This document shows positions 6,933-48,063 of a DNA stretch of 64,000 nucleotides, in pieces; position 1 is the first letter of the stretch; every line of letters starts with the position of its first letter. A program made the translations under genes and the position numbers. Under the pieces are notes generated by a model. That model worked only from the letters and a program-made list of their open reading frames with translations, was not told the DNA's origin and did not search any database. Origin of the DNA: Candidatus Saccharicenans sp. (GTDB lineage Bacteria > Acidobacteriota > Aminicenantia > Aminicenantales > Saccharicenantaceae); contig JBASPX010000078.1 of NCBI GenBank assembly GCA_049659625.1, positions 4,128 through 68,127 on the forward strand, in the 5' to 3' direction.

Positions 6933-7203
6933 GACCGTCTCTCTTGTTCTTAACCACCATATTTCTGAGACGGGAAGAATTTTATCACATTCAACTGTCT
7001 TTCTTATAATAAACGATCGCCTTCATCTCCTGTCCGTTAAGTTTCCTTTTCAGGATGAGGAAAAATTCAGAGAATAAATCCCGATAATATTGGCCGGAGC
7101 TCTTATCGTCTGAAAAGAGTTCCAGCGTTAACGCCCGGAAATCAAAGCTTCTATTAGCCTTTTCAAAGGTGCCATGCAGGAAACATCTTCCTTTATGTAA
7201 GTT

Positions 7204-7318
7204 GGGACGGTGAATTCAGGAGACAGGCGGCGTGTCTCCGTACCGCGCGCAGCGAAAGGGGTTCCCCACGGGGGATGGATGGAGCGAGGACGGGAGGAGG
7301 CGCGCCGTGACAGGACCC
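7204..7318 (+). repeat. Copy A of a GC-rich structured element of about 100 nt (candidate ncRNA or cis-regulatory RNA), with an 18-nt insertion relative to copy B
   Basis: About 85% identical to 47857-47953 over the core gtctccg...cgcgcgcagcg(a/g)aaggggttcccc(a/g)cgggg...cgggaggaggcgc(g/a)ccgtgacaggaccc. A closing helix GGGACGG/CCGU..CCC and an internal CCCC-loop-GGGG hairpin can be drawn. It is about 70% GC in an otherwise AT-richer spacer. Confidence 0.5.
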
Positions 7319-7527
7319 TGCGGGACAAGAGCCGACAGAGGAACAGCAAGAACGTACGGGCTTGATGGCGGCCGGCCGCATGCGCTTTTCCGTTACAATC
7401 AAAATATAACCACGCTGATTCTTTCCCTCTCCTTTTTCTTTAATCTTTTCAAAACATGGATTATGATATTGCCCTGAAATCGTTTTTTAGAAATTTTAAG
7501 AAAAACAGATTAAAAATTAATACTGAT

Positions 7528-47161: not shown

Positions 47162-47822
47162 ATGAAAACTCTAAAAAGACGCGATTTTCTTAAAATTTCA
47201 GCCGGCAGCGGTGTCGCCCTGGCCATCACCCCGGAGCTCAAGAGCCCTGTCCGGGAATCAACCAAAACGTCTGCCCTGAGTTTCTCTCTGTCGCCGGGTC
47301 TGGGGAGTCCGGGCGGGCGGACAAAAGTAAAAGTGGCCAGAATCTACATGGGTTTGCCCCGGCCCCACTGACCAAAGCCCTCTCCCAACCTTGAGGAAGA
47401 GGTCAGAACTTACGAGGAATTCTTCAGCCGCCAGAAAGAAGAGCTGACCGACGTCGACTTTACAGTCAACATCCCGGCCAGCGAGTCCGAAGATATCATC
47501 CAACAGGCAGAAAAAATCAAGCAGGCCGACGGCATCCTGGTCATTCATCTGACCATCTGGATCGCCCCGATTCTGGAAGAGATACTGAAATTTAAGAAGC
47601 CTACGGTTATTTTTGCCGCTCCCTACTCGGGTCATGAATGGACGTATTACGGCAGCCTGATGAAACAGGAAAAAGGGGAAATGGTTGATTGCTTTCTGAC
47701 CAGCAACCGGCAGGAACTGATCAGGGCCATCAGGCCATTCCGGGCGATTCACCACCAGCGGGAGGCAACAATTTTTCGTTTTGCCCGGGTGGGATTTCTG
47801 AAATTTCTGATTCCAGGCTGAC
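47162..47822 (+). CDS. Tat-signal protein whose frame continues through an in-frame TGA at 47369-47371. Candidate selenoprotein or recoded gene, alternatively a pseudogene.
   Basis: MKTLKRRDFLKISAGSGVALA is a twin-arginine signal. After the TGA the same frame stays open for 150 codons with protein-like sequence (PKPSPNLEEEVRTYEEFFSRQKEEL...ILVIHLTIWIAPILEEI...) to a TGA at 47820-47822, with no in-frame start near the TGA. A hairpin lies 7 nt downstream of the TGA. RBS GCGGAGG before the ATG. Confidence 0.45.
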
Positions 47823-47856
47823 ATCTACCCCATTTTAAAATCTGAGAAAGGATTAA

Positions 47857-47953
47857 GGGTGTCACGGCGCGTCTCCGAATCGCGCGCAGCGGAAGGGGTT
47901 CCCCGCGGGGATCGGTGAGCGAGCACGGGAGGAGGCGCACCGTGACAGGACCC
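47857..47953 (+). repeat. Copy B of the GC-rich structured element of about 100 nt (candidate ncRNA or cis-regulatory RNA)
   Basis: About 85% identical to 7204-7318. Terminal helix GGGUGUCACGG(C)GCG / CGC(A)CCGUGAC(agga)CCC closes the element, with an internal CCCCgcGGGG hairpin. Lies 34 nt downstream of the preceding gene and about 110 nt upstream of the M14 peptidase gene. Confidence 0.5.
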
Positions 47954-48063
47954 TTCCTCAAGCATGTACCATAAGGGGCAGCTCCTTCCTTCCGGAAAAT
48001 TCCATTTGAAATATGCCCCCTGAAAAATATATATTTTCTCTCTTAAGCTCAACGGAGGAGCTG

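Follow-up and report, generated by a model that had tools for sequence, protein, structure and literature searches.

Bacterial miniature inverted-repeat transposable elements (MITEs), among them Correia/NEMIS of Neisseria, ERIC/IRU of enterobacteria, RUP of Streptococcus pneumoniae and Nezha of cyanobacteria, are short non-coding sequences with terminal inverted repeats and target-site duplications. Each genome has tens of intergenic copies in either orientation; their transcripts fold into long hairpins, mobilisation takes place in trans, and inserted copies decay. Repetitive extragenic palindromes (REPs) measure 20-40 nt, have neither terminal repeats nor target duplications, are arranged as inverted doublets and need a RAYT gene. 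Here we consider two diverged copies, A and B, of a GC-rich structured element in a 64,000-nt stretch of a Candidatus Saccharicenans contig (JBASPX010000078.1; hereafter, the window), each located 100-200 nt upstream of a plus-strand gene, coding for a lipoprotein and an M14 peptidase, respectively, and on the same strand as that gene. They belong to a family specific to the Aminicenantes (Ca. Saccharicenans and relatives), and we think it likely that they are copies of a multi-copy, non-autonomous transposable element of the MITE type.

This reading is based on the inverted repeats, the 9-bp target-site duplications, and the dispersal of intergenic copies in either orientation. The element is short (below about 500 bp) and non-coding, possesses terminal inverted repeats, is associated with a duplication of fixed length, and is represented by many dispersed copies per genome; in its small size, inverted termini, duplications and dispersed intergenic copies it resembles the bacterial MITEs described above. 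It differs from them in having a GC-rich, covarying core of about 100 nt with an invariant apex, which is conserved above the termini across class-level diversity, as well as in its strand-specific wobble pairs, its subfamily-specific arms, and its local tandem or composite arrays.

Distribution, termini and target sites of the family

More than 200 copies of the element, all of them intergenic, were found in Aminicenantes/Saccharicenans genomes and metagenomes. The genome scan, in which one genome per species was searched with a 19-mer from the core, returned at least 117 loci and yielded at least about 90 element copies in at least about 70 loci, often with several copies per genome and some in tandem; the metagenome-assembled genome (MAG) Saccharicenans Yes71-14 holds at least 18 copies across 6 contigs. 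Matches in high-GC Actinobacteria had the 19-mer alone in common, and the whole element was found in Ca. Saccharicenans, in Aminicenantes MAGs, and in MAGs labelled Eubacteriales or Clostridiales. The metagenome scan, performed with a second, different core block, gave at least 120 loci, and among the matches listed the element was present in 115 of 120. Two core patterns had no match in viral contigs, nor did blastn against plasmids and phages yield any. Rfam 15 gave no match over the whole window at gathering thresholds; at E<=10, matches around copies A and B were at chance level and none was relevant, and five other family variants likewise gave only chance-level matches at E<=10 or E<=1. 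The statement in the earlier note that the element fits no known RNA family therefore holds. Judging from Rfam, the phage and plasmid collections, and one narrow full-text search (two terms, Aminicenantes plus a MITE phrase) that returned no papers, the repeat family appears to be undescribed.

With regard to the taxonomic labels, locus L014 from an “Eubacteriales” MAG (element loci are designated here by L numbers) is syntenic with L032 from Aminicenantes over four genes, with 57-68% amino-acid identity. The MAGs named “uncultured Eubacteriales bacterium” and “Clostridiales bacterium A05DMB-I-28” (L014, L003, L004, L109 and others) display Aminicenantes gene order together with the repeat. 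Their NCBI labels look wrong, and the MAGs look like relatives of Aminicenantes.

Outside Saccharicenans, well-preserved, intact copies form an imperfect palindrome of about 210 nt with the core in the middle. The terminal inverted repeats are about 20-50 nt long, the commonest terminus being G[G/T]AAGCATC…CCGTGAT, and the flanking inverted repeats reach z values of up to 16 relative to shuffles, exceeding 4 in about 20 copies. Pairing in the arms shows no G·U strand bias (39 vs 61), and the arms behave as DNA-level inverted repeats. Abutting the termini, in the same register, are 9-bp direct repeats, which are exact at L032, L011, L109, L129 and L130 and match at 8 of 9 positions in five more copies (including L020, L191, L166 and L180, the last with a different arm type); three of these five abut the same G[G/T]AAGCATC termini. 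As a control, left flanks were paired with right flanks from different copies: the 9-bp duplication test was passed by 10 of the 114 copies and by none of the 1129 mismatched pairs. We also found two copies located about 7 kb apart on contig CAYVAT010000024.1 (L014 2905-3044 and L020 2260-2399) with an identical private 16-nt insertion, CCCGACCCAGCCTAAC, in the 5′ arm, indicating that duplication or transposition acted on a copy that was already mutated and looked defective. Away from cores, stray termini are about as frequent as estimated for chance. At L110 (6809-6827), a solo right-end terminal repeat, ATCACGGAAAAGGAGATGC, is situated just past a stop codon with no core near it, and is probably a remnant of a deleted element.

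The termini delimited by the duplication analysis, GTAAGCATC, GGAAGCATC, GAAAGCATC or GGTAGCATC, match the published IS66 sequence GTAAGCG at 6 of 7 positions, and other subfamilies have different ends. Inverted repeats of the IS66 family begin with GTAAGCG (PMC11946415, PMC12888890) or, with a third report included, with GTAAGCG or GTAA, over a length of 20-30 bp (PMC11946415, PMC12888890, PMC12898284); those of the ISBst12 group begin with GTAAC…. While the G[G/T]AAGCATC termini resemble IS66 ends, no TnpA, TnpB or TnpC gene lies near any examined copy, and the termini of some subfamilies are unrelated to those of IS66. We regard this resemblance as a lead and not as membership.

The orientation of the element is random with respect to flanking transcription. 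For the 82 clusters with both neighbours called, the orientation of the upstream and downstream genes relative to the element was (-,+) in 24, (-,-) in 21, (+,-) in 20 and (+,+) in 17, a tally made with crude open reading frame (ORF) calls but symmetric in its result. Where both neighbours point the same way, 17 clusters are sense and 21 antisense; a further 20 are flanked by convergent genes. The neighbouring genes are unrelated to one another (cysS, alanine dehydrogenase, TrkH, ExbB, M14 peptidases, ThiS), with no family enriched apart from orthologous loci, and clustering of about 1000 neighbouring ORFs produced no recurrent family and no transposase. Retention at orthologous sites was considered as possible evidence of a host function, as an identically oriented element precedes cysS at both L014 and L032. 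However, their target duplications differ, that of L032 being perfect, which makes them independent insertions, and a sample of this size would be expected to contain roughly two or three such cases by chance. The M14 genes of the window and of L091 are 29% identical, and are thus paralogs. The tie of the window copies to “exported proteins” is coincidental.

In Saccharicenans, the element also builds composite or tandem units of 147, 240 or 293 nt, which consist of core, linker and a core-deleted mini-hairpin. All tandem arrays are in direct orientation, and at least one of them, that of L044, is bounded as a whole by one single pair of terminal repeats. Every 293-nt unit in Yes71-14 holds the mini-hairpin GGGUGGCGCGACCUGACAGGCCCC, in which only the basal helix and the UGG/ACAGG loop are kept. 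The possibility that mini-hairpins constitute a separate abundant repeat was discarded, as hairpins of this kind turned up only in one Saccharicenans genome.

Anatomy of the conserved core

Core sequences were aligned in two sets, A3 with 67 copies and a larger one with 145 copies, both of which have the same architecture. The GC-rich core of about 100 nt starts from a basal helix, GGG/CCC, extending into variable but complementary flanks, and continues through a conserved asymmetric 3x6 internal loop (UGG opposite ACAGGA) into helices P2 (CACGGCG/CGCCGUG), P3 (GUCUCC/GGAGGC) and P4 (CGCCCGC/GCGAGGACG), the latter with conserved C·A and G·A mismatches. At the apex is a segment of about 35 nt which is invariant, with its apparent invariance inflated by the choice of loci through exact core-block matches, and which exists as type I, GCAGCGGAAGGGGUUCCCCACGGGGGGAUGGGUGGAGC, and type II, GGG(N)CCCAC(U/C)GGGGG. 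Variation between GGAA, GUAA and GAAA in the apex resembles that of a GNRA loop. A CCCC-loop-GGGG hairpin can be formed in every copy, and is situated in the invariant part, beyond the reach of covariation. We infer a rod-like fold composed of helices P0-P4, which the core adopts on one strand only.

Pairing in A3 amounts to 89.5% of cells, vs 82.4% in column shuffles, and 17 pairs have changes on both sides. None of the 500 shuffles reached the observed values of five covariation measures, and sliding the partners by 1-3 columns reduces pairing to 36-49%. In the larger set, covariation was seen at pairs 6:111, 14:100, 15:99, 16:98, 18:96, 19:95 and 26:88, and at the core pair 36:79, which is C-G in 114 copies and G-C in 17, being canonical in 99%. 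RNAalifold places the CCC of P4 in an alternative hairpin, with which pair 36:79 is incompatible. The compensatory changes, together with core indels that are not multiples of three, agree with the earlier view of the conserved unit as a nucleic-acid structure and not a protein. In addition, G·U cells are more frequent than A·C cells (161 vs 51), an excess that falls almost entirely in the upper helix, and in 127 of 136 copies the given strand has the more stable fold; this wobble and strand signal derives largely from three columns and from the G-rich composition, and is supportive, but short of decisive. Conservation is higher in the core, and especially in its apex, than in the terminal repeats, which vary between subfamilies, and the same core is combined with at least four different arm types.

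The motif GGGUGG occurs twice in the element consensus, in the 5′ base and inside the invariant apex (AUGGGUGGAGC), and both occurrences are invariant. Its counterparts are found at 7204-7206 (where only the basal GGG survives) and 7277-7282 (GGAUGG) in copy A, and at 47857-47862 (GGGUGU) and about 47911-47916 in copy B. The 3′ basal strand, ACAGGACCC, could pair with either GGGUGG, making an alternative fold possible. Several other known structures were weighed against the core sequence and set aside. The UGG/ACAGGA loop has no tandem G·A after the bulge, as a kink-turn would; the many GGA motifs recall a CsrA-titrating RNA, but C frequently replaces the A of ACAGGA, and the motifs reflect no more than a G-rich strand; a G-quadruplex would require four GGG tracts with legal loops, which are lacking; there are no AAC/GTT boxes of an integron attC site; and for 6S, SRP or Y RNA the copy number is too high and no model matches.

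The window copies and their surroundings

The existence of two diverged copies, as claimed initially, is borne out. Copy A (7228-7319) and copy B (47857-47953) are about 88-90% identical: alignment and repeat finding gave 46 nt at 89% and 38 nt at 95% identity, and blastn gave 92 nt at 88%. Two conserved blocks occur twice each in the window, with none expected from 100 dinucleotide shuffles, and the family profile detects copies A and B only, with no third (nhmmer, whole window). Both copies stand out as GC-rich against a window average of about 50% GC. On the other hand, their nhmmer scores, 90.8 bits for copy B and 85.9 for copy A, compare with 100-118 for intact family copies, and, judged against the family consensus, both are degraded.

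Copy B is predicted to fold, on either strand, into a long imperfect hairpin (z = -3.6 and -3.8 vs shuffles). The closing helix described for it earlier (GGGUGUCACGG/CCGUGAC..CCC) is present in this fold. Copy A does not fold significantly better than shuffles (z = -0.4). While all stems are kept in copy B, its otherwise invariant apex has suffered a 3-nt deletion and substitutions; in its ortholog at L186 the apex is intact. In copy A, the nhmmer match spans model positions 21-114 only. The conserved 5′ base, GGGUGGCAC, is lost, together with the UGG internal loop, and an unrelated segment of about 20 nt, ACGGTGAATTCAGGAGACAG, stands where that base should be, so that only 7228-7319 is homologous to the family. 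It is this replacement that had been described as an 18-nt hairpin insertion. A match between L076 and the copy A region reaches 7379, with weak homology up to about 7497; copy A belongs to a composite unit located between divergent genes. Both copies are present with unchanged length on same-species contigs from other samples.

L186, from a related species, represents the ortholog of the window M14 locus, with an M14 gene 83% identical and the same upstream genes. Its intergenic region contains one full copy of the element, one degenerate copy of near-full length, a 3′ fragment and a mini-hairpin, vs one copy in the window. The best-conserved block at this locus outside the element is AAATTCCATTTGAAATA…GAAAAATATATATTTT (window 47995-48063, L186 6760-6845), which includes a promoter-like site located between copy B and the M14 start codon, as well as a GGAGGAG ribosome-binding site. 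This promoter-like block is probably the real promoter of the M14 gene, in which case the element would be upstream of the promoter and outside the leader. On its other side, copy B is abutted by a pseudogene in which residues 1-215 of the 489-aa ortholog remain, with the truncation ending at copy B; on same-species contigs, gene callers give only a 69-aa stub for it. This arrangement suggests that, in the window lineage, a repeat-associated deletion took out the remainder of the gene together with some of the repeat array. Overall, copies A and B have most likely become inactive relics, which serve no dedicated function for the adjoining genes.

Table 1. Features of the two element copies in the window, of the adjoining M14 peptidase locus, and of element arrays at other loci (L numbers).
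Feature	Position	Strand	Description
Copy A, left-arm remnant (putative)	7179-7201	+	GGAAACATCTTCCTTTATGTAAG; about 14 of 21 positions agree with family terminus GGAAGCATCTCCGTTTCCGTGAT
Copy A, rearranged 5′ base	7204-7227	+	GGG, then ACGGTGAATTCAGGAGACAG replacing family UGGCAC (67-copy comparison)
Copy A, conserved part of core	7228-7319	+	P2 5′ strand onward, apical domain, whole 3′ strand
Copy A, 3′ linker	7320-7353	+	..ACAAGAGCCGACAGAGGAACAGCAAGAA; homologous to the linker of the 293-nt composite/tandem unit of Ca. Saccharicenans
GC-rich mini-hairpin 3′ of copy A linker	7367-7379	+	GGCGGCCGGCCGC
Pseudogene remnant abutting copy B	47162-47821	+	Twin-arginine translocation (TAT) signal; in-frame stop at codon 70 (Trp in L186 ortholog)
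Copy B, left arm	47802-47856	+	Degenerate terminal-inverted-repeat remnant, GACATCTACCCCATTTT... vs consensus GGAAGCATCTCCGTTTCC; weakly assigned
Copy B, complete GC-rich hairpin core	47857-47953	+	nhmmer, folding, family comparison
Copy B, lower core			Basal helix GGG/CCC; internal loop UGU (consensus UGG) opposite ACAGGA
Copy B, upper core			Stems P2-P4, then apical domain with damaged invariant GGGGGGAUGGGUGGAGCG (3-nt deletion, substitutions)
Copy B, right arm	47954-48000	+	Degenerate remnant, …ATAAGGGGCAGCTCCTTCC; weakly assigned
Promoter-like site of M14 gene	48006-48035	+	TTGAAA-18-TATATT; block conserved with L186
Arrays, 293-nt period	L001 1338-1750, L005 2779-3188, L044 4296-4705, L106 2819-3230		
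Arrays, about 240-nt period	L048 781-1367, L079, L013, L033, L171		
Arrays, 147-nt period	L090 960-1217, L023 3588-3850		

Competing explanations and significance

Several observations weigh against assignment to MITE-type elements. In an ordinary DNA transposon, the termini are the conserved, protein-recognised part, and neither a constant core combined with differing terminal repeats nor strand-specific wobble pairs in that core would be expected of an ordinary cut-or-copy element. Part of the core invariance is ascertainment; two different core blocks were used, and each locus set shows the other block conserved. About 1.6 Mb of element loci yielded neither an autonomous partner nor a transposase. 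A search for the L032 empty site in one metagenome scan gave no matches, and no empty site was recovered for the window copies, all same-species contigs carrying both. The link to IS66 is further weakened by the 9-bp length of the duplications, as the published direct repeats of IS66 and ISBst12 are 8 bp. Finally, copies A and B themselves have no convincing terminal repeats or target-site duplication, and the inverted repeat in the copy B flanks is not significant, so that their membership in the family is based on core homology, complemented in copy A by the linker.

The same core could instead be the functional part of a mobile or multi-copy non-coding RNA gene, with the arms serving as its vehicle or as the base of a long closing stem. 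Such a gene would account for a core that is better conserved than the terminal repeats and keeps company with at least four arm types, and would be in line with the covariation extending into the core (pair 36:79), with a G·U asymmetry marking one strand, with apical variation typical of a GNRA tetraloop, and with tandem arrays which all run in direct orientation. We nevertheless judge it unlikely, in view of the random orientation relative to flanking transcription, the decay of orthologous copies (as in the copy B apex, intact at L186), and the lack of an Rfam family; moreover, the element copies are neither preceded by a conserved -10/-35 box at constant spacing nor followed by an intrinsic terminator on either strand. 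In its broader form, which we also rate as a minor possibility, the functional RNA would be the real unit of selection in the Aminicenantes, either as a mobile non-coding RNA gene or as the recognition module of an RNA-dependent mobilisation system, for which SINE-like retroposition or an RNA-binding transposase may serve as examples. If true, it would explain how a single core can be joined to several arm types that are unrelated, and the higher conservation of the core relative to the termini. It would also be in keeping with constraints on the core that look RNA-like, or ssDNA-like. The omega/reRNA of IS200/IS605 and the bridge RNA of IS110 are comparable in being conserved, structured non-coding modules of mobile elements, constrained beyond filler DNA. 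In contrast to the present element, these RNAs adjoin or overlap a nuclease or recombinase gene, no such gene being linked to the core described here; their elements have no 9-bp duplications or long inverted repeats, and no Rfam model of this kind matches.

Retroposition similar to that of short interspersed nuclear elements (SINEs), in which the rod RNA would be reverse-transcribed and integrated at staggered nicks to yield the 9-bp duplications, with the apex as the reverse-transcriptase recognition site, would suit the coincidence of the element ends with the hairpin base, the arms that vary yet stay complementary, the RNA-type constraints on the upper stem, and the core being more conserved than the ends. 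We consider it improbable, given that the lower arms lack a G·U strand bias, like DNA-level inverted repeats, that no reverse transcriptase gene was found near any examined copy, and that we know of no such system in bacteria. A similarly small chance is left for a hairpin repeat acting as single-stranded DNA, be it of the REP/RAYT, IS200/IS605 (palindrome-associated transposable element, PATE) or integron attC-like type. The family does offer a strand-specific hairpin with conserved extrahelical and internal-loop bases, and shares with REPs, bacterial interspersed mosaic elements (BIMEs) and REPINs the GC-rich, imperfectly palindromic, intergenic and sometimes clustered repeats that may form RNA hairpins in read-through transcripts. 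Yet REP, IS200 and attC systems make no target-site duplication, whereas duplications of 9 bp are seen here; REPs of 20-40 nt with a 5′ GTAG are unlike an element of about 210 nt with direct-orientation arrays; the RYYYAAC/GTTRRRY boxes that attC needs are absent from the basal stem; and no Y1/HUH transposase or integrase gene lies near any examined copy. The earlier note had set the element apart from REP-type repeats while allowing that copies scattered in random orientation would point to a MITE or REP-type repeat; such scattered copies, with inverted repeats and 9-bp duplications, are what the family consists of.

The cis-regulatory leader RNA or riboswitch that this note had preferred for the downstream secreted-protein genes is hardly credible any longer: although it was suggested by the position and strand of both window copies, by a conserved core with covarying stems such as riboswitches and structured leaders possess, and by a sigma-70-like site upstream of copy A, the element has many copies with target duplications, symmetric orientation, unrelated neighbours and no fixed gene position, the conserved M14 promoter lies downstream of copy B, no Shine-Dalgarno-sequestering expression platform is evident, and terminator-like sites are absent near copy A and limited near copy B to a single one inside the M14 coding region.

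On the MITE-type reading, insertion duplicates 9 bp of target DNA, and copies land in intergenic DNA in either orientation, can expand locally into the tandem or composite arrays described above (147-, 240- and 293-nt periods), and then decay. Because no partner is present in the examined loci, mobilisation would take place in trans, through a DDE-type transposase that is possibly IS66-like. Since the core is better conserved than the terminal repeats, it probably serves as a cis-acting structural module needed for propagation or persistence of the element; it might be bound by the transposase or by some host factor, or might form a stable hairpin, whether in read-through transcripts or in DNA that is single-stranded.

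For annotation of the window, a false lead is removed, in that neither element regulates the lipoprotein or the peptidase gene, and both should be masked as repeats, with copy B marking the deletion that truncated a gene. In a broader context, the repeat is abundant in the Aminicenantes, a widespread uncultured lineage of sediments, aquifers and digesters, and represents a handy marker for their genomes, as well as a source of assembly breaks. Modules of mobile elements that act in cis or at the RNA level have recently proved important, as in the case of omega RNAs and bridge RNAs, and a structured core which stays invariant while its stems and the transposon ends change is a reasonable candidate for a module of this type.

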